Shown: positions 3,708 to 64,000 of the stretch, piece by piece
Position numbering within the stretch: the stretch's first letter is position 1
Layout of the letters: each line of letters starts with the position of its first letter
NCBI RefSeq assembly: GCF_044324875.1
Contig: NZ_CP172188.1
Strand: one strand, 5' to 3'
From: Escherichia coli
GTDB lineage: Bacteria; Pseudomonadota; Gammaproteobacteria; Enterobacterales; Enterobacteriaceae
Length of the DNA stretch: 64,000 nt
Position numbers and translations under genes: made by a program
Notes under the pieces: generated by a model
Seen by the model: only the letters and a program-made list of their open reading frames with translations
Databases searched by the model: none
Told to the model about the DNA's origin: nothing

Positions 3708-4028
3708 TTTTAAGTTGAATTGTAAATTTCTCCGATGTACATTCACTACCGATTGGCACACCGGTCAACTTTTTGAGACAAACTGTTTAGTTTTTCGTAT
3801 TATTGCCCCCGCCATACCTATGGCGGTGCAATATAGGTGGCTGAAAAGCCCCCGTTGACTCACGGTGTTCCAGCCTTTATTGCGCCGCCACCAGACCGTG
3901 GAACAGTCGATGGCGGCTCCGAAAGCAAGGAGTCACTACACTATGAACAACTACAGTCTTTTCCCATCACTCGTCGTCCACCACTCACGCGATAATCTGC
4001 ATTCTTTATTCGCGCTGGGGGAGTCAAA

Positions 4029-4196
4029 ATGACTGTTCGCTACCTCAACTTTCAAATCAAGAACATTACTGGCGGTTGCTATGACTGGTTTGTCACTCTC
4101 GGAAAAGAAGTGATTACCGGGAAGCTGGATGAAGTGAAAGCTAAAGCAATGGCCTACGCCTGCAAGCAAGCCCGGAAGAAATCCGCCAAAGCATAA
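4029..4196 (+). CDS. small hypothetical protein (55 aa), coupled to an upstream 29-aa ORF at 3943-4032
   Basis: GGGGGAG before ATG; ATGA overlap with the upstream mini-ORF; followed ~100 nt later by a terminator. Confidence 0.25.
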   Translation: MTVRYLNFQIKNITGGCYDWFVTLGKEVITGKLDEVKAKAMAYACKQARKKSAKA

Positions 4197-4301
4197 AATA
4201 CTGACTGTTGCGCCCTGGCATTATCGTGGGGTATATTTCTACGGCACCTTAGAAAAACGGGTGCCGGGATTGGAACCCCGGATAATGCAAAAGGCGACAC
4301 A

Positions 4302-4323
4302 GACGCCGAAAGCGTCTTTTCTT
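4302..4323 (+). terminator. rho-independent terminator candidate
   Basis: gacgc-cgaaa-gcgtc hairpin followed by ttttctt. Confidence 0.5.
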
Positions 4324-4329
4324 GTGTCA

Positions 4330-4508
4330 TGCCATCGCACAGCCATACGTAGCGTTTAGCTCAGAGATCAATGGTAGTGCTGGCTGGGCTGCCGAAAGGC
4401 AGGCCGGTTCCCTTTTGCGCCGGTAGTTCCAACCCAGTCAGTGCTACCGCCATTGAGATTGGAACCTCACGCGGTAGCTCCTTAAATTAGCAAAAGGAGG
4501 CTGCCAAT
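4330..4508 (+). promoter_or_regulatory. structured leader of antirepressor module A (differs from the leaders of modules B/C/D)
   Basis: Hairpins ctgcc-gaaa-ggcag (~4388-4401) and gttccaa...ttggaac (~4415-4458); AGGAGG before the ATG at 4509. Confidence 0.3.
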
Positions 4509-4724
4509 ATGGCTACTATCCCTACCCCAACTCATTCTGAATTTATCTGGCGTTTCTATTCCTGCCAAAAACACCTGTATATCTGCGTCATGGCTGCAAC
4601 CGAAGCAGAAGCTCGTTCATACCTTCCTGAAGAACCCTGCATTTTTGCCGCACGCTTCACTCTTGATGCGATGGAGATCCTCAATTACTGGAATCTGCCA
4701 ATGAACTGCGTGGAGGTGCACTGA
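4509..4724 (+). CDS. small protein upstream of the antirepressor (Icd-position ORF, module A)
   Basis: 71 aa; stop overlaps the ATG of the next gene (TGATG); paralogous to 28238-28462, 38110-38325 and 63376-63600. Confidence 0.6.
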   Translation: MATIPTPTHSEFIWRFYSCQKHLYICVMAATEAEARSYLPEEPCIFAARFTLDAMEILNYWNLPMNCVEVH

Positions 4725-5665
4725 TGAATCTGTCCATCTCTCAAAAAGCGACAATGACCAGCATTGAGATCGCGGAACTGGTAGGAAGTCGCCAAGATAG
4801 TGTGAAGAGAACTATCGAAACACTGGCTAAAAAGAGTGTGATCCAATTTCCACAATCTGTGGAAATTGAAAATAAACAATCAGTTGGCCCTCGTCGATTT
4901 TCCAAGGCTTACATCTTTGAAGGCGAACAAGGCAAGCGCGATAGTATCATTGTCGTCGCACAGCTCTCTCCGGAATTCACCGCCCGGCTGGTGGACCGCT
5001 GGCGCGAACTGGAGAATGCCAGGGGACCGTTAAAATCAAAAGCCGAAATCCTGGCTGAAATGGCGCAAATGCATCTTGAGCATGAACGCCGGATCAACGC
5101 CGTAAATGCCCAGGTAGCCGAGGTATCAGCACAAGTATCGATGGTCGCTGAAACACTCGAGCAAATAAAGAAAGGCAATATGCCGGAAGGCTACATTGGC
5201 TACCGCCAGCTGGCGGCGAAATGCGGCCTGACTGAAGCCAAATGTCGCAACCTGGTTAACGCTTACCGGATACCCACTGATACGCATGAGTTTTTGACTC
5301 CCGACGGTTTGCTTGCGCGACGCTCAATTGTGGCCCTGGCCCCCTTCCGGAAAGCCTTTAAGCAGGTTATGTCGGAGGCAGAACCACGCAACAAACGCTG
5401 GTATCATCCAAAGATGGGGATGTTTCAGGCAATCCACCATCCTGTGCCTGAAAGTCCAAAGGCAAACCTGTCGTTGCATACCGCCAGAGAGAGGATTAAA
5501 ACAGGGTATGCAATCGTATGCCGTCGAGCATCTTGGCCTGAAGGTGTATGGGTATGGCCCGAAGGTGGATCACGAAAGCACTGGCGCACTATCCGGGATG
5601 GGAAAATCCATGCGATTGATTTAGCTCCAGAGGATGTTGTTGCTACGGACTGGATTGTTAGTTAA
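4724..5665 (+). CDS. phage antirepressor-type protein (Rha-like N-terminal domain plus conserved C-terminal domain), module A
   Basis: 313 aa; N-terminus ...MTSIEIAELVGSRQDSVKRTIETL... resembles the Rha regulatory domain; C-terminal ~180 aa nearly identical to the module B and C proteins. Confidence 0.6.
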   Translation: MNLSISQKATMTSIEIAELVGSRQDSVKRTIETLAKKSVIQFPQSVEIENKQSVGPRRFSKAYIFEGEQGKRDSIIVVAQLSPEFTARLVDRWRELENARGPLKSKAEILAEMAQMHLEHERRINAVNAQVAEVSAQVSMVAETLEQIKKGNMPEGYIGYRQLAAKCGLTEAKCRNLVNAYRIPTDTHEFLTPDGLLARRSIVALAPFRKAFKQVMSEAEPRNKRWYHPKMGMFQAIHHPVPESPKANLSLHTARERIKTGYAIVCRRASWPEGVWVWPEGGSRKHWRTIRDGKIHAIDLAPEDVVATDWIVS

Positions 5666-27996: not shown

Positions 27997-28237
27997 GTTG
28001 CAGCAAATTCTGCGACCGGGTTTAGCAGCCTGAATGTACATGCGGACAACCGCAGATATCCGATATTGCGGTATTTTTGTGTCCGTAAAACCATGTTACG
28101 CCCGAATTATGGTGGGGCGTGATGGGGAGGCTTCGGCCTGCTGGTTTCATGTACGCCAGTCTGCTAACCCCGTCACGTCCTGCCACCCGTTTAGCAGCGG
28201 GTAGCAGGTTGTTAAACCTGTACATGAGGCCGTAACT
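27997..28237 (+). ncRNA. structured leader with an embedded c4-like antisense regulator and two target sites (module B)
   Basis: Elements TTAGCAG/GTACATG at 28022-28042 and 28191-28226 (the second abuts the GAGG Shine-Dalgarno) are complementary to CATGTAC/CTGCTAA at 28148-28167; the complementarity is kept by compensatory changes in modules C and D. Confidence 0.5.
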
Positions 28238-28462
28238 ATGGTTAATGCCAATCCTTGCTCACGTCCAGAATTCATCTGGCGTTTTCACTCCCTGCAAAAA
28301 CACTGCGATCACTTCGCAATTGCCGCAACTGAAAAAGAAGCCCGTTCTCTGATCCCTGATCAGTATGGTGTTCTTACTGGTCGTTTCTCTACTTCCCCAC
28401 AACCAAACACTAATCCCTGGTATCGCAATATTACCAATCCCGGAATTGCGGAGGCACACTGA
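28238..28462 (+). CDS. small protein upstream of the antirepressor (Icd-position ORF, module B)
   Basis: 74 aa; TGATG coupling to the next gene. Confidence 0.65.
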   Translation: MVNANPCSRPEFIWRFHSLQKHCDHFAIAATEKEARSLIPDQYGVLTGRFSTSPQPNTNPWYRNITNPGIAEAH

Positions 28463-29382
28463 TGGATATCTGCATTCTTGAAAAGCCATCAATGACCAGC
28501 ATTGAGATCGCGGAGCTGGTGGGAAGTCGTCCAGATAACGTAAAAATATCAATAGAGCGCCTGGCTAAATCTGGAGTTATTCAACTTCCTGCATTGCAGG
28601 TTTTCGAAAAAATCAATAACTTAGGACTACGCCGTAGTGTCGAGGCTTACGTCTTCGAAGGCGAGCAAGGCAAACGAGACAGCATTATTGTCGTTGCGCA
28701 GCTCTCTCCCGAATTCACCGCCCGGCTGGTGGACCGCTGGCGCGAACTGGAAGAACAAGTACGCCAGCCGTTGACCGAAATAGAGATGATCGCCGCAATG
28801 GCTGCAAATGCAGTTCAGCAGCAAAAGCGGCTTCATGTTGTTGAGTCAAAGGTTAGCCAGGTTGCTGAAACCGTCGAGCAGATCAAGAAGGGCAACATGC
28901 CAGAAGGTTACATTGGCTACCGCCAGCTGGCGGCGAAATGTGGCCTGACTGAAGCCAAATGTCGCAACCTGGTTAACGCTTTCCGGATTCCCACCGATAC
29001 GCATGAGTTTTTAACTCCAGATGGTTTGCTTGCGCGACGCTCCATTGTGGCCCTGGCCCCCTTCCGGAAAGCCTTTAAGCAGGTGATGTCGGAGGCAGAA
29101 CCACGCAACAAACGCTGGTATCATCCGAAGATGGGGCTGTTTCAGGCAATCCATCATCCTGTGCCTGAAAGCCCAAAGGATAATCTGTCACTACATACCG
29201 TCAGAGAGAAGATCAGGACTGGATACGCAACAGTGTGTCGTCGTTCTTCCTGGCCTGAAGGTATATGGGTGTGGCCCGAAGGTGGATCACGAAAGCACTG
29301 GCGCACTATCCGGGACGGGAAAATCCATGCTATTGATTTAGCGCCAGAGGATATTGTTGCTACGGACTGGATTGTTAGTTAA
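28462..29382 (+). CDS. phage antirepressor-type protein (Rha-like N-domain), module B
   Basis: 306 aa; N-terminus ...MTSIEIAELVGSRPDNVKISIERL...; conserved C-terminal domain. Confidence 0.65.
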   Translation: MDICILEKPSMTSIEIAELVGSRPDNVKISIERLAKSGVIQLPALQVFEKINNLGLRRSVEAYVFEGEQGKRDSIIVVAQLSPEFTARLVDRWRELEEQVRQPLTEIEMIAAMAANAVQQQKRLHVVESKVSQVAETVEQIKKGNMPEGYIGYRQLAAKCGLTEAKCRNLVNAFRIPTDTHEFLTPDGLLARRSIVALAPFRKAFKQVMSEAEPRNKRWYHPKMGLFQAIHHPVPESPKDNLSLHTVREKIRTGYATVCRRSSWPEGIWVWPEGGSRKHWRTIRDGKIHAIDLAPEDIVATDWIVS

Positions 29383-36373: not shown

Positions 36374-37081
36374 GTGAGTATTTTCAGCAGCGTTGGTAGA
36401 ACGTTGACCACCGCATTGTCATTTAACACGAAATCATTCACCAGCAACCTCATTAGCGACATTCTTGATAAAGCCATATCAGGCGGCGGGGTAAGCGGGA
36501 ATTACAGTAGCGATATTGCCTACGGGAAAAATATTGTTGCTGCCGCTATGCGCATCCGTTACGCCCAGGGGTGGCAGTGGACCGTTGAAGTGGATGGTCT
36601 GAACGGCTTCGATATGTTCGTGAAGGATATCACCTACAGCAGTGGGAACATCGAGACAGAAAGCAAGGTGATCGGTAGCGTAGAATTCAGCAAGCCAACC
36701 TATGTTAGCGCCGGACCGGTCACTATGACCGTGAGGGATACCGAAGATGGCAAGATCATGGACTGGTTCAAAGAGCGTCGTTCTCGTGTAACAAATCCTG
36801 ATGGAACAATAAACCTTCCTCCGGAATATCTGATGAAAATCCGTGTCTACCGGGTAACTCAGGACGGCGGAAAAGAACTGGAAGAAGAAATGCGCGTATT
36901 TCCTACACAACTTGGGGAAATCACTCGCTCACGTGATCAGGTGTCAGAGTTCTTGTCATACCCAATCACTTTCCAGAAATACACATCCGCAGGCTCAGGT
37001 GTTTCTGCTTTGGTCAACGGTGCCGCTGGCATGGCTACAAGTGCCCTGAAAAATACTGCCAGTAACATAATTAAATTTTAA
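36374..37081 (+). CDS. hypothetical phage structural protein
   Basis: 235 aa ORF in the structural operon. Confidence 0.4.
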   Translation: MSIFSSVGRTLTTALSFNTKSFTSNLISDILDKAISGGGVSGNYSSDIAYGKNIVAAAMRIRYAQGWQWTVEVDGLNGFDMFVKDITYSSGNIETESKVIGSVEFSKPTYVSAGPVTMTVRDTEDGKIMDWFKERRSRVTNPDGTINLPPEYLMKIRVYRVTQDGGKELEEEMRVFPTQLGEITRSRDQVSEFLSYPITFQKYTSAGSGVSALVNGAAGMATSALKNTASNIIKF

Positions 37082-37083
37082 AA

Positions 37084-37106
37084 AGCCCCGGACAGGCCGG
37101 GGCAAC
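37084..37106. terminator. conserved hairpin / bidirectional terminator (shared by the structural operon and module C)
   Basis: ccccgg-acagg-ccgggg between convergent genes. Confidence 0.5.
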
Positions 37107-37111
37107 AGTAA

Positions 37112-38110
37112 TTAACTAACAATCCAGTCCATAGCAATAACATCCTCTGGAGCTAAATCAATAGCATGGATTTTCCCGTCACGGATGGTGCGCCAGTGCT
37201 TTCGTGATCCACCTTCGGGCCATACCCATACACCTTCAGGCCAGGAAGAACGACGACACACTGTTGCGTATCCAGTCCTGATCTTCTCTCTGACGGTATG
37301 CAGTGACAGATTATCTTTTGGGATTTCCGGTAAAGGATGATGGATTGCCTGAAACAGCCCCATCTTCGGATGATACCAGCGTTTGTTGCGTGGTTCTGCC
37401 TCCGACATAACCTGCTTGAAGGCTTTCCGGAAGGGGGCCAGGGCCACAATGGAGCGTCGGGCAAGCAAACCATCTGGAGTTAAAAACTCATGCGTATCGG
37501 TGGGAATCCGGTAAGCGTTGACAAGGTTGCGGCATTTGGCTTCAGTCAGGCCACATTTCGCCGCCAGCTGGCGGTAGCCAATGTAGCCTTCCGGCATATT
37601 GCCTTTCTTGATTTGCTCGACGGTTTCAGCGACTTTGGACACTTGTGCCGATACCTCGGCTACCTGGGCATTTACGGCGTTAATCCGGCGTTCATGTTCA
37701 AGATGCATTTGCGCCATTTCAGCCAGGATTTCGGCTTTTGATTTTAGCGGTGAGTGCTCCGGTATTAATTGCTTAATACGAAAATAGCTGTTTACCAGCT
37801 CACGTTGCACTTGCCAGGCCAGATCGTCATTGAATGACTTAACAATCATTAGATAACCGGACTCAGTGAACACGCGCAAACCGCGCGGGGGGACATTAAT
37901 TCCAAAAGTGTCAAAAACGCCCTTTTCAGAGTAATCAATAAGATAGGTATCTACACCATCAACAAAACGGTGCTTGTTACGATGGAAAGTTGTTTTAGCT
38001 AATCCTTTTGGTCGCTCGTGCACCTCATCAATCATCTCAAAGGTCACTACACGCTGATTTTTATATTCGAGAGTCGGGAATGGTTTGTTATTGATAGTTA
38101 CTGCGTCCAT
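37112..38110 (-). CDS. phage antirepressor-type protein with a KilA-N/ORF6N-like N-domain, module C
   Basis: Start at MDAVTINNKPFPTLEYKNQRVVTFEMIDEVHERPKG... (TAATG coupling with the upstream small ORF); C-terminal ~180 aa nearly identical to modules A and B; the ORF track extends to 38197. Confidence 0.6.
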   Translation of the reverse strand: MDAVTINNKPFPTLEYKNQRVVTFEMIDEVHERPKGLAKTTFHRNKHRFVDGVDTYLIDYSEKGVFDTFGINVPPRGLRVFTESGYLMIVKSFNDDLAWQVQRELVNSYFRIKQLIPEHSPLKSKAEILAEMAQMHLEHERRINAVNAQVAEVSAQVSKVAETVEQIKKGNMPEGYIGYRQLAAKCGLTEAKCRNLVNAYRIPTDTHEFLTPDGLLARRSIVALAPFRKAFKQVMSEAEPRNKRWYHPKMGLFQAIHHPLPEIPKDNLSLHTVREKIRTGYATVCRRSSWPEGVWVWPEGGSRKHWRTIRDGKIHAIDLAPEDVIAMDWIVS

Positions 38111-38325
38111 TAATGCACCTCCACGCAGTTCATTGGGCGGTTCCAGTAGGTCAAAACGTCCAGGGCATCGAGTTTGAAGCGAGCCGCAAAAATGCACGGA
38201 TCTGTAGGAAGAAATGAACGCGCTTCAGCCTCAGTAGCTGCCATTACGGTGATATAGGTGTGTTTTGTGCAGGAATAAAAGCGCCAGATGAATTCTGGAC
38301 GTGAGCAAGGATTGGCATTAACCAT
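38110..38325 (-). CDS. small protein upstream of the antirepressor (Icd-position ORF, module C)
   Basis: 71 aa; paralogue of 4509-4724. Confidence 0.65.
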   Translation of the reverse strand: MVNANPCSRPEFIWRFYSCTKHTYITVMAATEAEARSFLPTDPCIFAARFKLDALDVLTYWNRPMNCVEVH

Positions 38326-38566
38326 AGTTACGGCCTCATGTACAGGTTTAACAACCTGCTACCCGCTGTCAAACAGGTGGCAGGGCGTGACAGGGTTGAC
38401 AGACTGGCGTACATGAAACCAGCAGGCCGAAGCCTCCCCATCACGCCCCACCATAATTCGGGCGTAACGTGGTTTACGGACACAAAAATACCGCAATATC
38501 GGAAATCTGCGGATGTCCGCATGTACATTCAGGCTGTCAAACCTGGTCGCAGAATTTGCTACGACG
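38326..38566 (-). ncRNA. structured leader with a c4-like antisense regulator (module C)
   Basis: Minus-strand elements TTGACAG/GTACATG (targets) and CATGTAC/CTGTCAA (antisense) in the same arrangement as module B. Confidence 0.5.
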
Positions 38567-38571
38567 GCGTG

Positions 38572-38600
38572 AATATAAGCCTGAACATCTGGAAGATCAA
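38572..38600 (-). promoter_or_regulatory. sigma70-like promoter of module C
   Basis: Reverse complement of TTGATC-17-TATATT. Confidence 0.5.
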
Positions 38601-38653
38601 CATCAAATTGTTGATGATTTATTTTATTATTCATGTTTGAAAATTCAAATTAT

Positions 38654-38666
38654 TTTTCTAACACAA
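38654..38666 (-). promoter_or_regulatory. copy of dispersed motif upstream of the module C promoter
   Basis: TTTTCTAACACAA on the plus strand = TTGTGTTAGAAAA on the minus strand. Confidence 0.35.
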
Positions 38667-38789
38667 TACGAAAGGGAGTGAAAATTATTCTCCAGCGTTA
38701 ACCCAAACAAAATTATGTGTGCTGGAGGGTTGCTCATTTCCCGTCAGCACCCACGCCCTCAACGATAGCGGGTAGGGAAGGAAGCGCAA

Positions 38790-39088
38790 TTTTGAGGGCA
38801 TTTTTTACATCATCAATCCATATGTAATGAAGGCATTCTTTACACATTTCAATAATATCAATCAGTTAGCACAGTGAATGATAATAAAAAAGCGCAATAA
38901 GAATGCACGATACGCACGATATTGGTTGAGGGTAATTTTTACATAATCCTTATATATCAATATGTTATATAAAAACACAACTTACCAATAACAAGATACA
39001 TGCAATTAAGATGTAAAAATTGCCCTCAATTGCCGATCGTTAAGGGCAAATTCTACACCTTGAGAGGGGTGTAAAAATTGCCCTTAAG
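38790..39088. repeat. iteron cluster downstream of repE (copy-control / incompatibility-type repeats)
   Basis: Repeats of TGAGGGCA(A/T)TTTTTACA and inverted copies (for example 38791-38812, 38926-38946, 39010-39029, 39041-39088) in an AT-rich region. Confidence 0.55.
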
Positions 39089-39839
39089 ACTGCTGATAGG
39101 TAAATTTTATCCTGGTAACTTTGCCGCCTTCCGTCACCTCTGAGAAGACTATTTTCATTTTTGTATTTTTTTCAATCTCTGCTACAGCCTTCGTTAAAAA
39201 ACTTCTCTTAAATTCGGCATACCGCTGATAGCTTTTTGGTAACCCATAACGCTCCCGCATCCATTCGACGCCAAGTATGGCAAAGCCGCTTCCATCATCC
39301 TTCCTGTACTGGCATAAGGACTCATAAAGCCGCATAGAATAAGGATTTGTAAGGCGAGATACTTCGGTAAAATTCAGCCTTGTGAATCTCTTATCAAGCA
39401 GAGTAAAAAACGGCATGAGATATGGATTAAGATGAATAATGTAAGTCCCACGCCGTGGTGAATAGGCATCCTTAATCATCCAAGGATAAGACTCATAACT
39501 GTCTTCTGATTCGGTCGATTCATCAGGGTTATATATCGTAACTTTCTTCTCGCTAAGACCTGAAATGGCCTTACGAATATCCTTGCTGGCTTCAGCAGAG
39601 GGCAAATTATACATCTCTGCATATTCGTTGACCGTCAACTCACAGGCACCTGAACCAAGAACGCCATCCTTAGAAGCATAGCGAAGCCTTCCCACCACAA
39701 TAAACAACAGTCGCTTTTGGTCGCGAGTCAGGTGATAAGCAGCCTCCGTGATCTCATTGGCTTGTGCCAAACTACGACTAATAGGTGTCGCTGACTCAAT
39801 CAGGCTGACGGCTTTTGCTGTTAATTCCGCTCTGTTCAT
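39084..39839 (-). CDS. RepE-like iteron-binding replication initiator (mini-F type)
   Basis: ...EAAYHLTRDQKRLLFIVV..., FGLTSAEASKDIR-like NLPSAEASKDIRKAISG, YESYPWMIKDAYSPRRGTYIIHLNPYLMPFF, NPYSMRLYESLCQYRKDDGSG closely resemble F-plasmid RepE as I recall it; start at 39839 (ATG) or 39872 (TTG). Confidence 0.75.
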   Translation of the reverse strand: MNRAELTAKAVSLIESATPISRSLAQANEITEAAYHLTRDQKRLLFIVVGRLRYASKDGVLGSGACELTVNEYAEMYNLPSAEASKDIRKAISGLSEKKVTIYNPDESTESEDSYESYPWMIKDAYSPRRGTYIIHLNPYLMPFFTLLDKRFTRLNFTEVSRLTNPYSMRLYESLCQYRKDDGSGFAILGVEWMRERYGLPKSYQRYAEFKRSFLTKAVAEIEKNTKMKIVFSEVTEGGKVTRIKFTYQQS

Positions 39840-39863
39840 AACCCTGTGTGATCCTTCAAATGG

Positions 39864-40125
39864 TGAGGGCAATTTTTACATCACTTTGAGGGCAATTACT
39901 ACACCTTTTGAGGGCAAATCTTACACCTTCTGAGGGCAAATCTTACACCGATCGTATCTAATTGAGGGCAAATCTTACACCAGACTCCTCTACAGCCCGC
40001 GCCACTACTGGCTCCAGCGACGCCTAAAAAGGATCTAAAAAGGATTAAAAATGGAAAAAGGTTTATAAAAATACTCTGTGGATATGTGAGTAGCGTCACT
40101 TAAGGTGTAAAAATCACCCTCAATA
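39864..40125. repeat. origin-type iterons, AT-rich tract and DnaA-box-like site upstream of repE
   Basis: Five direct ~19-22-bp iterons TGAGGGCAAATCTTACACC (39864-39981), one inverted copy (40105-40123), A-rich tract 40030-40075, TGTGGATAT (~40078-40086) one mismatch from a DnaA box. Confidence 0.6.
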
Positions 40126-61999: not shown

Positions 62000-62962
62000 G
62001 TGAGTATTTTAAATTCAGTTTCAGTAACTTTCAACACTTCTGAGTATAAAAACAACACTGAATACCACAAAAAAATCAAAGGTCATCAGTTGAGTTTTTT
62101 TGCTCGCCACTGTGGTTTTCTTTCCCCTTCACATAGCGCCATTATTGCCGAGTTCGCCAACCTGGCAGGGGCTACCGATGAATACATGATCCGTCGTTCA
62201 TATGCTGATATGTCCGAGATTACAGGACGCAGTATTTCTACTGTGCGCCGGGCATTTGCTGAAGCGACGAAGTGCGGAATGCTTGTTAAGCAACATCAGG
62301 TAGCGAATAACAATGCTCAGGTGTGTAACGTATACCGGTTTACAACACAATTTCTCCACTTCATTCATGTAGCAATGGAGATAGGGGGTAAGCAGGGCAT
62401 CAAATTTGCGAACGCCACAAAACTGGTTAAGCAGTTGATTTCAAATGTTCGGTATTTTTTTGAAACTGGGAACCCCCTGTTCAAATTGAACAAGTCCCCC
62501 CATGTTCAAAATGAACAGCCAATAGAAAATAAGAGTCACTCTATAGCCAAAAGAAGAGAAAGATCATGCGCGGTTCAGCCAAAGGCTTCACCAGCAGATA
62601 GTTCCCAAGCGGATAATGGATTACTGGATAAAAAACCAGTAATCAGGGAGGAACATACCAACCACTGCCTGGCGGCGGCAAAAGCGAGAGCTGCAAAGCG
62701 TCGTTCAGACGAGGGGCACGCAAAACGGCAGGCTCTGTATCGTACCGCTGAAAAGCTGGCAAAAAAATTTGCATGGATACGTAGTGCCGCTACCGCAGTG
62801 AATAAGCCTAAACAATCCAGTGCCCTGGATTTCTCAATGGATTATTCTGGCTCCCAGGGGTGTGCAACCATTGGTGAAGCCTTTGACCTGATGAAACAGC
62901 GTGGCTATCGGTCTGAATTTGACCGGGAGGATTGGTCAATCCCTGCGGGATTTAGGGGATGA
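62000..62962 (+). CDS. HTH-containing protein, possibly a replication initiator or regulator
   Basis: 320 aa; MSEITGRSISTVRRAFAEATKCGML HTH-like; basic C-terminal region; preceded by palindromes and a GATC cluster. Confidence 0.35.
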   Translation: MSILNSVSVTFNTSEYKNNTEYHKKIKGHQLSFFARHCGFLSPSHSAIIAEFANLAGATDEYMIRRSYADMSEITGRSISTVRRAFAEATKCGMLVKQHQVANNNAQVCNVYRFTTQFLHFIHVAMEIGGKQGIKFANATKLVKQLISNVRYFFETGNPLFKLNKSPHVQNEQPIENKSHSIAKRRERSCAVQPKASPADSSQADNGLLDKKPVIREEHTNHCLAAAKARAAKRRSDEGHAKRQALYRTAEKLAKKFAWIRSAATAVNKPKQSSALDFSMDYSGSQGCATIGEAFDLMKQRGYRSEFDREDWSIPAGFRG

Positions 62963-63135: not shown

Positions 63136-63375
63136 GTCGTAGCAAATTCTGCGACCAGGTTTGACAGCCTGAATGTTAGTGCGGACAACCGCAGATTTCC
63201 GATATTGCGGTATTTTTGTGTCCGTAAACCGCGTTACGCCCGAATTATGGTGGGGCGTGATGGGGAGGCTTCGGCCTGCTGGTTTCACTAACGCCAGTCT
63301 GTCAACCCTGTCACGTCCTGCCACCTGTTTGACAGCGGGTAGCAGGTTGTTAAACCTGTTAGTGAGGCCGTAACT
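63136..63375 (+). ncRNA. structured leader with a c4-like antisense regulator (module D)
   Basis: TTGACAG/GTTAGTG at 63161-63181 and 63329-63364; complementary CACTAAC/CTGTCAA at 63286-63305. Confidence 0.5.
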
Positions 63376-63600
63376 ATGGTTAATGCCAATCCTTGCTCAC
63401 GTCCAGAATTCATCTGGCGTTTCCACTCCCTGCAAAAACACTGCGATCACTTCGCAATTGCCGCAACCGAAAAAGAAGCCCGTTCTCTGATCCCTGATCA
63501 GCATGGTGTTCTTACTGGTCGTTTCTCTACTTCCCCACAACCAAACACTAATCCCTGGTATCGCAATATTACCAATCCCGGCATTGCGGAGGCACACTGA
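63376..63600 (+). CDS. small protein upstream of the antirepressor (Icd-position ORF, module D)
   Basis: 74 aa, near-identical to the module B copy. Confidence 0.65.
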   Translation: MVNANPCSRPEFIWRFHSLQKHCDHFAIAATEKEARSLIPDQHGVLTGRFSTSPQPNTNPWYRNITNPGIAEAH

Positions 63601-64000
63601 TGGATATCTGCATTCTTGAAAAGCCATCAATGACCAGCATTGAGATCGCGGAGCTGGTGGGAAAACGTCATGACAATGTGAAGCGTACCATTGAAACATT
63701 AGCCGAATCCGGCGTTATTGTTCGTCCTCAAATTGAGGATGAACCAAAAATAGATGTAATGGGGCGTTCTCGATTAATTCAGGTGTTCCGATTTAGCGAC
63801 GAGCAAGGCAAACGAGACAGTATCATTGTAGTCGCACAGCTTTGTCCTGAGTTTACTGCCCGGCTGGTGGACCGCTGGCGCGAACTGGAAGAACAAGTAC
63901 GCCAGCCGTTGACCGAAATAGAGATGATCGCCGCAATGGCTGCAAATGCAGTTCAGCAGCAAAAGCGGCTTCATGTTGTTGAGTCAAAGGTTAGCCAGGT
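63600..64000 (+). CDS. phage antirepressor-type protein (Rha-like N-domain), module D, truncated by the window end
   Basis: MDICILEKPSMTSIEIAELVGKRHDNVKRTIETL...; frame open to position 64000. Confidence 0.6.
   Translation, partial: MDICILEKPSMTSIEIAELVGKRHDNVKRTIETLAESGVIVRPQIEDEPKIDVMGRSRLIQVFRFSDEQGKRDSIIVVAQLCPEFTARLVDRWRELEEQVRQPLTEIEMIAAMAANAVQQQKRLHVVESKVSQ

Follow-up and report, generated by a model that had tools for sequence, protein, structure and literature searches.

An ORF6N-family N-terminal domain on a shared protein frame in one of four c4 antisense modules of a D6-like Escherichia coli phage-plasmid

Why does one of four related phage immunity modules carry a large open reading frame (ORF) with a different front end, and what does its back end do? 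The question is raised by a 64,000-nucleotide stretch of Escherichia coli DNA (contig NZ_CP172188.1 of RefSeq assembly GCF_044324875.1), which is referred to here as the window. The DNA is that of a D6-like E. coli phage-plasmid, and it contains four modules of the P1 immI type, A to D, each composed of a c4 antisense RNA, an icd gene and a large ORF (AntA to AntD). This identification is based on megablast matches to E. coli plasmids, to the tail-tube gene of phage D6 and to the immI regions of P1 and P7. Positions 36500-39000, which contain module C, are 99.9% identical to CP099081.1 and 97.6% identical to NZ_CP127300.1, both E. coli plasmids. D6 matches the tail-tube gene flanking module C, and the c4/icd part of the module is 88-91% identical to P1 and P7 immI. 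We found that AntC begins with an ORF6N-family domain in place of the Rha-family domain of its paralogues, and that the antisense region in front of it is also a hybrid.

The initial annotation described the large ORFs of modules A, B and D as beginning with a Rha-like segment and that of module C as beginning with a KilA-N/ORF6N-like segment. Separate searches of the N-terminal regions placed them in different families. The N-terminal domain of AntC comprises amino acids 1-113 (37772-38110, minus strand, as for all features of module C). Its residues 14-92 match positions 4-86 of the 86-position Pfam ORF6N model (PF10543, i-Evalue 1.3e-11), and the nearest AntC homologues carry PF10543. KilA-N (PF04383) was not matched by AntC in Pfam even at E <= 10, and only the ORF6N part of the description is retained. 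The N-terminus of AntA matches Phage_pRha (PF09669) over model positions 1-91 at 8.6e-6. AntB matches the same Pfam model marginally (0.002), and its homologues carry PF09669. AntD is Rha-like by its sequence, with 75% DNA identity to B in the N-domain segment. The assignment of A, B and D is confirmed, as are the N-terminal strings given for the four proteins. The isolated N-domains also match different PHROGs. No NCBIfam model matches the large ORFs, and the shared C-terminal region of AntA, AntB and AntC has no match in Pfam.

Different families may still share a fold. In this alternative the N-terminal regions are distantly homologous members of a Bro-N-like winged-helix superfamily, and module C represents family replacement within one domain class, not the shuffling of unrelated domains. 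Comparison of profiles built from 27 ORF6N and 108 Rha N-domain sequences revealed no significant similarity (hhalign probability 0.2%), and none was seen by Pfam or PHROGs. With relaxed settings, hhalign produced a co-linear alignment of 86 columns that places helix-turn-helix on helix-turn-helix and pairs ‘vFtESG..YLMIVKS’ with ‘YVFEGEQG..SIIVVAQ’, although it is non-significant. The AntA N-domain matches ORF6N-type PHROGs marginally (0.03). Rha domains have weak winged-helix matches in Pfam and the PDB, and the predicted model of the ORF6N domain resembles the winged-helix-like DHD and Orf22 domains. PDB searches with AntC residues 1-259 and with the Rha profile returned nothing significant. 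Published work treats the two domains as interchangeable members of one network (PMC10111431). We give the common fold a little less than an even chance. Even if the fold is common, the breakpoints in the DNA show a recombinational replacement.

These breakpoints were located by aligning the four modules at the DNA level and scoring identity segment by segment. The upstream region, the c4 gene and the b2/a2 leader of module C are B/D-like, with identities of 0.86-1.00. The icd gene is a mosaic. Its first ~23 codons are B/D-like (0.83-0.84) and the rest is A-like (0.69, versus 0.42 to B and D). The N-domain segment of ant is unlike that of every other module (0.30-0.33; 0.30 to A). The linker that follows is A-like (0.83, versus 0.39 to B and 0.38 to D); A and C carry linker type 1, and B and D type 2. 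The remainder of ant is common to A, B and C at 0.86-0.96. Because the identity between A and C is 0.30 inside the N-domain, and 0.69 on one flank and 0.83-0.94 on the other, the change of N-domain is a replacement and not a divergence. As read from the sequence, the ORF6N segment is a cassette placed by recombination into a gene that is otherwise A-like and follows a B/D-like c4 region. The domain shuffling proposed in the initial annotation is therefore the right reading, with different N-domain families bounded by sharp breakpoints. The swap in module C is an ordinary phage domain exchange, of a kind known from the literature and already labelled in RefSeq.

The antisense elements of module C are reassorted in a similar way. 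Its c4 RNA (38373-38458; Rfam RF01695, 69.9 bits, E 1.5e-11) and the a1/b1 target element upstream of it (38526-38578; RF03163, 55 bits) both score above the gathering score. In the c4 RNA, a’ is read as CATGTAC (38415-38409) and b’ as CTGTCAA (38402-38396). In the upstream element, b1 is read as TTGACAG (38540-38534) and a1 as GTACATG (38526-38520). In the icd leader, b2 (38372-38366) is the exact complement of b’. The exact complement of a’, a2 (38343-38337), abuts the icd Shine-Dalgarno sequence. Complementarity between a and b elements is exact over 7 nucleotides at all sites and self-consistent in every one of the four modules. The a-motif of module C, GTACATG, is that of B, and its b-motif, TTGACAG, is that of D, at a1/b1, a’/b’ and a2/b2. 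The hybrid specificity noted for this module is thus exact at all three positions, and its c4 region is itself a recombinant, with the a-site of B and the b-site of D. One genome therefore holds four c4 specificities, with motifs spanning 38366-38540 (C), 28022-28226 (B), 63161-63364 (D) and 4270-4497 (A). By their motifs, c4-B and c4-D could each pair with just one of the two target sites of module C. Promoter-like hexamers, which are consensus matches only, lie at 38648-38621 and 38600-38572.

Downstream of the leader lies an icd-like ORF of 71 amino acids (38110-38325), which matches NCBIfam NF033153 (46.6 bits, cut-off 25) and phrog_1426 (2.5e-37). The antC gene (37112-38110; 332 amino acids plus stop) follows, and its product is 92% identical to RefSeq clusters named ‘ORF6N domain-containing protein’. 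The icd stop and the ant start overlap in the sequence TAATG, on account of which icd and the large ORF are predicted to be translationally coupled. A program-made ORF at 37112-38197, which begins at a GTG inside icd and has 361 amino acids, overstates the gene. The true start is the ATG at 38110 in the TAATG overlap, and the resulting length equals that of the RefSeq homologue. A hairpin resembling an intrinsic terminator lies 3’ of ant (37085-37103) and is kept after AntA and AntB (alignment columns 1566-1600).

What is the part that the swap left in place? AntC residues 111-332 are 90.5% identical to AntA, and residues 124-332 are 83% identical to AntB. In all, ~165-210 C-terminal residues are common to A, B and C at 83-93% identity. 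A near-identical C-terminus had been attributed to all four proteins. This is shown for A, B and C only, as the ORF of D is cut after 133 amino acids by the end of the window. The shared region is a real, selected protein region and not a low-complexity sequence, and most codon differences in it are synonymous. In the middle domain, the A-B and A-C pairs have 14 synonymous versus 1-2 non-synonymous differences, and the B-C pair 10 versus 1. In the last 75 codons, the numbers are 16-17 versus 8-10 for A-B and A-C, and 7 versus 6 for B-C. The synonymous excess points to purifying selection on diverged copies and not to a very recent duplication.

The same region was earlier called a constant effector domain, which was an assumption. 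It is a composite of a coiled coil, a winged helix and a Tad2-like end. The first piece is the type 1 linker with a long helix, probably a coiled coil (amino acids 114-170, 37601-37771); the AlphaFold2 (AF2) model places the helix at residues 125-168, and this piece occurs in the two linker types. The second is the shared middle domain (amino acids 171-258, 37337-37600), a Roi-type winged helix-turn-helix. It is modeled as a winged helix like those of Xis (excisionase) and MerR, and is DNA-binding in appearance. The middle domain is 73-76% identical to the C-termini of proteins annotated as Roi or DNA-binding protein, and matches phrog_63, phrog_1726 and phrog_6610. The third piece, the last ~70 residues (amino acids 259-332, 37115-37336), is not resolved by the full-length AF2 model, where its predicted local distance difference test score (pLDDT) is below 50. 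The alignment used for that model omitted short homologues of the terminal domain, which MAFFT had placed at the N-terminus, and the terminal domain was also modeled alone.

Several lines of evidence suggest that this terminal domain is a divergent Tad2-like module (PF11195/DUF2829). The AntC terminal domain matches phrog_7385, a stand-alone family of 65 amino acids, at 7e-16. An exhaustive search of 1.84 billion representatives found only three true relatives, P0121, P0123 and P0124, the first two at 2e-6 and 1e-5. P0123 matches the Pfam Tad2-like model at 3.5e-5 over positions 2-71 of 73, and PF11195 is matched at E <= 0.1 by four of the seven family members. In addition, DGKIHAIDLAPEDVIAMDW of AntC aligns with DNKIHAWVPSQTDVLAEDW of SPO1 Tad2, with a score over the C-terminal 19 amino acids that at most 1 in 2000 shuffles reached. 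For this comparison, Tad2 chains were fetched from the PDB with an approximate DUF2829 consensus as the probe, and only the PDB segments returned (8sme) were used. The Tad2 fold is reported as α1 plus a five-stranded antiparallel sheet, assembled into a tetramer (bioRxiv 10.1101/2023.05.01.538930). The predicted order in the terminal domain, α1 followed by four to five β strands, fits this topology, although AF2 models the isolated domain with low confidence (pLDDT 58; α1 plus four strands) and Foldseek finds no Tad2 structure with that model. Two sets of searches weigh against the assignment. AntA, AntB, AntC and the isolated terminal domain have no direct Pfam match to the Tad2-like model, and the PDB was searched by sequence and by profile, starting from the terminal domain, the family alignment, P0121 and P0123, without reaching Tad2. 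Through transitive homology, we regard the last ~70 residues of AntA, AntB and AntC as a likely divergent Tad2-like module. The corresponding segments of AntA and AntB lie at 5440-5662 and 29157-29379 on the plus strand. P1 Coi was also considered as a relative of the small terminal domain, and no similarity was found.

The likeness to SPO1 Tad2 has clear limits. Both are a small α1 plus β-sheet domain with a G...R..W motif near the N-terminus and ‘KIHA....D..A.DW.IV’ at the C-terminus, and the family here is also known as a stand-alone phage protein of ~65 amino acids. In contrast to the 89 residues of Tad2, the domain here has ~65, is fused to a regulator and is known from sequence. Tad2 of SPO1 contacts glycocyclic ADP-ribose (gcADPR) through W25, N26, W73, S76, T78 and D79, while D67 and H71 coordinate waters (bioRxiv 10.1101/2023.05.01.538930). 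In an alignment extended by hand, W25, D67, H71 and D79 are kept, whereas N26, W73, S76 and T78 are replaced by P, I, A and E, so that half of the contacts are altered. The β2-β3 loop of Tad2, ~25 residues with α2, is missing. Since four contacts including W73 are changed and this loop is absent, the terminal domain is unlikely to bind gcADPR in the manner of SPO1 Tad2.

The arrangement of the Tad2-like ORF in relatives provides a further view of the domain. D6 gp82, like modules A, B and C, has it fused to the large ORF. It is adjacent in the IMG/VR loci L033 and L035, where c4, icd and an ant of 235 amino acids that ends after the middle domain are followed by an overlapping, separate 65-residue ORF (3028-3225 in L033 and 3031-3228 in L035). 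D6 itself has this adjacent form near repL, with orf19 (icd), orf18 (‘similar to HK97 Roi’) and orf17 (hypothetical; 1774-1971 in L041). In two more distant relatives of ~90 kb, L037 and L038, the a1b1 element and c4 are followed directly by a small Tad2-like ORF (4001-4291 and 4001-4207), with neither icd nor ant. The small domain is the only cargo behind c4 in these solo copies, which argues that it has a function of its own and not a mere role in oligomerization. What is new here, as a lead, is the Tad2-like module together with the three ways in which it is placed behind c4: fused, adjacent or solo.

An alternative view of the cassettes builds on these arrangements. The conserved payload of the c4-gated cassettes would be the Tad2-like piece, made at entry, silenced in lysogeny and acting alone, perhaps as a small inhibitor or by soaking up a nucleotide used in immune signalling, and the Roi/Rha part would be a fused accessory. 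The three arrangements in related phage-plasmids, the existence of the stand-alone PHROG family, the nearly end-to-end match of P0123 to PF11195 together with those of its relatives, the alignment to SPO1 Tad2 and the order of secondary structure all speak for it. It has to be set against the lack of Pfam Tad2-like matches in AntA, AntB and AntC, the PDB searches that miss Tad2, the weak AF2 model without a Tad2 hit in Foldseek, the changed gcADPR contacts and the missing loop. We consider this view unlikely.

The other three modules lie on the plus strand. Their c4 RNAs were identified with Rfam at 4367-4454 (A), 28105-28190 (B) and 63243-63328 (D). Rfam found three a1/b1 elements in the window, in modules B, C and D. 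In module A an isrK-family element (4244-4322; 59.4 bits in Rfam) takes the place of the c4-a1b1 element. The c4 RNA of module A has only ~46-48% DNA identity with the other three and has its own a and b motifs, GCAAAAGG and TTGGAAC. AntA (4724-5665, 313 amino acids) combines a Rha-family N-domain with the type 1 linker and the shared middle and terminal domains. AntB (28462-29382, 306 amino acids) differs from it in having the type 2 linker. A tblastn search with the module C ORF found exactly two further copies in the window, at 4637-5662 (E 7e-146) and 28450-29379 (E 1e-120), which are nearly identical to it in the C-terminal part alone. For AntD, the first 133 amino acids (63600-64000) show a Rha-type N-domain and a type 2 linker. 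Module D is preceded by a repL-sized ORF (62000-62962). Its ant is probably of the unfused kind, stopping where the middle domain ends and leaving the last ~65 residues to a separate gene, because the region is syntenic with orf19-orf18-orf17 after repL in D6 and because L033 and L035 have this order.

Module C, ~1.5 kb long, is an insertion relative to D6, in which the spacing between tub and repA is 380 bp (window 37082-39083 compared to L006 3082-3464). It adjoins tub, as immI does in the annotation of P1. Between module C and a gene for an initiator of the RepB/RepA family (39084-39872, minus strand), there are five iteron-like copies of TTGAGGGCAATTTTTACA in both orientations (38792-39087). 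This array is presumably the plasmid origin, and the promoter region of module C would then abut it.

Is module C a functional copy at all? It could be a decaying extra copy without a function of its own. The module is absent from D6 and rare. Its locus is covered by 5 of 592 matching plasmid records, and the ORF6N type is carried by only 10 PLSDB plasmids. The PLSDB tables of the two closest plasmids omit the AntC coding sequence. However, the ORF is intact in those plasmids, and the 332-residue frame is complete both here and in NZ_CP127300.1. Nothing is missing from the c4 RNA, the six a/b sites, the terminator or the coupling to icd, and the shared part shows the synonymous excess described above. 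Moreover, while two of the 10 PLSDB plasmids have an N-domain 100% identical to that of AntC (one confirmed at the tub-repA site), the other eight keep a second ORF6N allele, 86.7% identical, at another module site (one confirmed at the capsid-side site, which is that of module B here). Decay is thus very improbable.

The modules resemble several known systems. Like P1 and P7 immI, they have a C4-family RNA with a’ and b’, the targets a1/b1 and a2/b2, an Icd-like ORF and a large ORF that overlaps the icd stop. Unlike them, they encode large ORFs that are not homologous to Ant1/2, and in place of a single cassette they number four, each with its own specificity. The closest proteins in domain content are lambdoid Roi (HK022/HK97-type) and Rha-family proteins, which have the same N-domain families, linker and middle winged helix at 56-76% identity. 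The phi467 ORF6N protein (248 amino acids) is 56% identical over AntC 1-256, and phiP27 L14 and PhiR49_2 ‘Roi’ (235 amino acids) present the Rha type on the same middle domain. In contrast to AntC, these proteins end after the middle domain (235-248 amino acids), with no Tad2-like end. Those examined are located in early or nin regions, where annotation shows no icd ahead of them (no scan of the flanks for c4 was made). The D6 annotation of gp82 reads ‘putative anti-repressor; similar to Rha/Roi/KilA’.

The domains are found in further combinations elsewhere. By annotation, the middle domain is behind KilA-N only in p59 of Serratia phage BZS1. The Rha N-domain of AntB (28462-28770) recurs, at 98-100% identity over 85% of the query, at the start of E. 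coli proteins that bear the name ‘phage antirepressor KilAC domain-containing protein’; a precomputed PF03374 match is recorded for one of them (99% identity). This suggests that the phage-plasmid has recently exchanged the AntB Rha domain with further E. coli elements. ORF6N domains related to that of AntC lie under coding sequences annotated as KilAC- or ORF6C-domain in clostridial plasmids. A ‘putative transcriptional regulator’ of APSE-7 (L007 799-1497) appears, by eye, to join an N-domain like residues ~115-200 of P1 Ant1 (L036 1334-2377) to the same middle domain. If so, P1 Ant and the D6-type proteins would be connected by way of the domain network, although no domain is directly common to both.

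The Bro network of domain-swapping phage and satellite regulators was reportedly described by Iyer, Koonin and Aravind in 2002. The network lists ORF6N and Phage_pRha, and its genes often adjoin C4/isrK immunity RNAs (PMC10111431). Free recombination of N- and C-terminal domains, the two families and this adjacency are exactly what is seen in module C. The difference is the Tad2-like module, which is absent from the ten Pfam domains listed there (PMC10111431). The isrK-orf45-anrP locus of Gifsy-1 is a parallel that has been studied by experiment; in it a translationally coupled, antirepressor-like gene gated by a small RNA drives induction (PMC4825925). In both cases a small RNA of the C4/isrK clan is accompanied by a short leader ORF whose stop overlaps the start of a coupled antirepressor-like gene; module A has an isrK-type element as well. 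Unlike c4, IsrK of Gifsy-1 activates translation in trans (PMC4825925). No Salmonella or Gifsy record was found among the matches listed, or in the organism tallies of phage matches to the middle domain.

Taken together, the best explanation, which we hold with moderate confidence, is that these are P1-immI-type cassettes with large ORFs of the Bro network, an N-domain swap in module C, and a c4-gated role in lytic development or anti-immunity. A single transcript per cassette would carry a1/b1, c4, the b2/a2 sites that cover the ribosome-binding site of icd, icd itself and the coupled large ORF. In the prophage state, c4 would pair with a2/b2 and shut off icd and, by coupling, the large ORF. 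Upon entry into a cell without a matching c4, or after loss of c4 control, the protein would be made and would promote lytic development or anti-immunity. As Roi/Rha-type members of the network, the large ORFs join a variable N-domain of the DNA-binding type to a coiled coil, a winged helix and a fused Tad2-like end. What is recognized, whether DNA or another protein partner, may be set by the swapped N-domain; dimerization, a second surface for binding DNA or a partner, and the Tad2-like function may come from the constant part. The sequences show directly how the cassettes are built, their mosaic make-up, the domain families and the selection on the shared region, whereas we infer both the antirepressor activity and this division of labour between the domains.

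In line with this explanation, c4 represses icd/ant and Ant antagonizes C1 in P1, by annotation. Several observations weigh against it. A blastp comparison of P1 Ant1 and KilA with AntA, AntB and AntC gave a best E of 0.11, with no similarity to Ant1/Ant2. Because there is no similarity to P1 Ant1/2 or KilA, the label ‘antirepressor’ is positional, taken from gene position and database names. No C1 homologue was found in the window, and the P1 C1 operator consensus has 0 matches in it at up to 3 mismatches. The omission of AntC from the two PLSDB tables, mentioned above, belongs here as well. A role as a Roi-like transcription factor is at least as plausible as repressor binding, since the N and middle domains look DNA-binding and Roi is annotated as ‘DNA binding protein’.

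A broader, speculative scheme would have the c4 cassettes of D6-type phage-plasmids as switches that express on entry and silence in lysogeny. Their conserved cargo would be a minimal Tad2-like factor for anti-defence or signal sequestration, with a ligand other than gcADPR. An arms race between related phage-plasmids that infect the same cell would have left its trace in the paralogues, in their distinct and hybrid c4 specificities and their exchanged N-domains. We regard this scheme as quite unlikely.

By itself, the swap changes little. It is a textbook modular exchange, and the ORF6N variant already bears that label in public records. Its value is as a natural experiment. Purifying selection has held the back end constant in three paralogues of one genome, whereas front domain, linker type and antisense specificity occur in new combinations, and this could reveal which part recognizes the repressor or DNA. 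The Tad2-like module, as a fused, adjacent or sole cargo of c4, suggests that P1-type immI cassettes may gate anti-defence in addition to anti-immunity.

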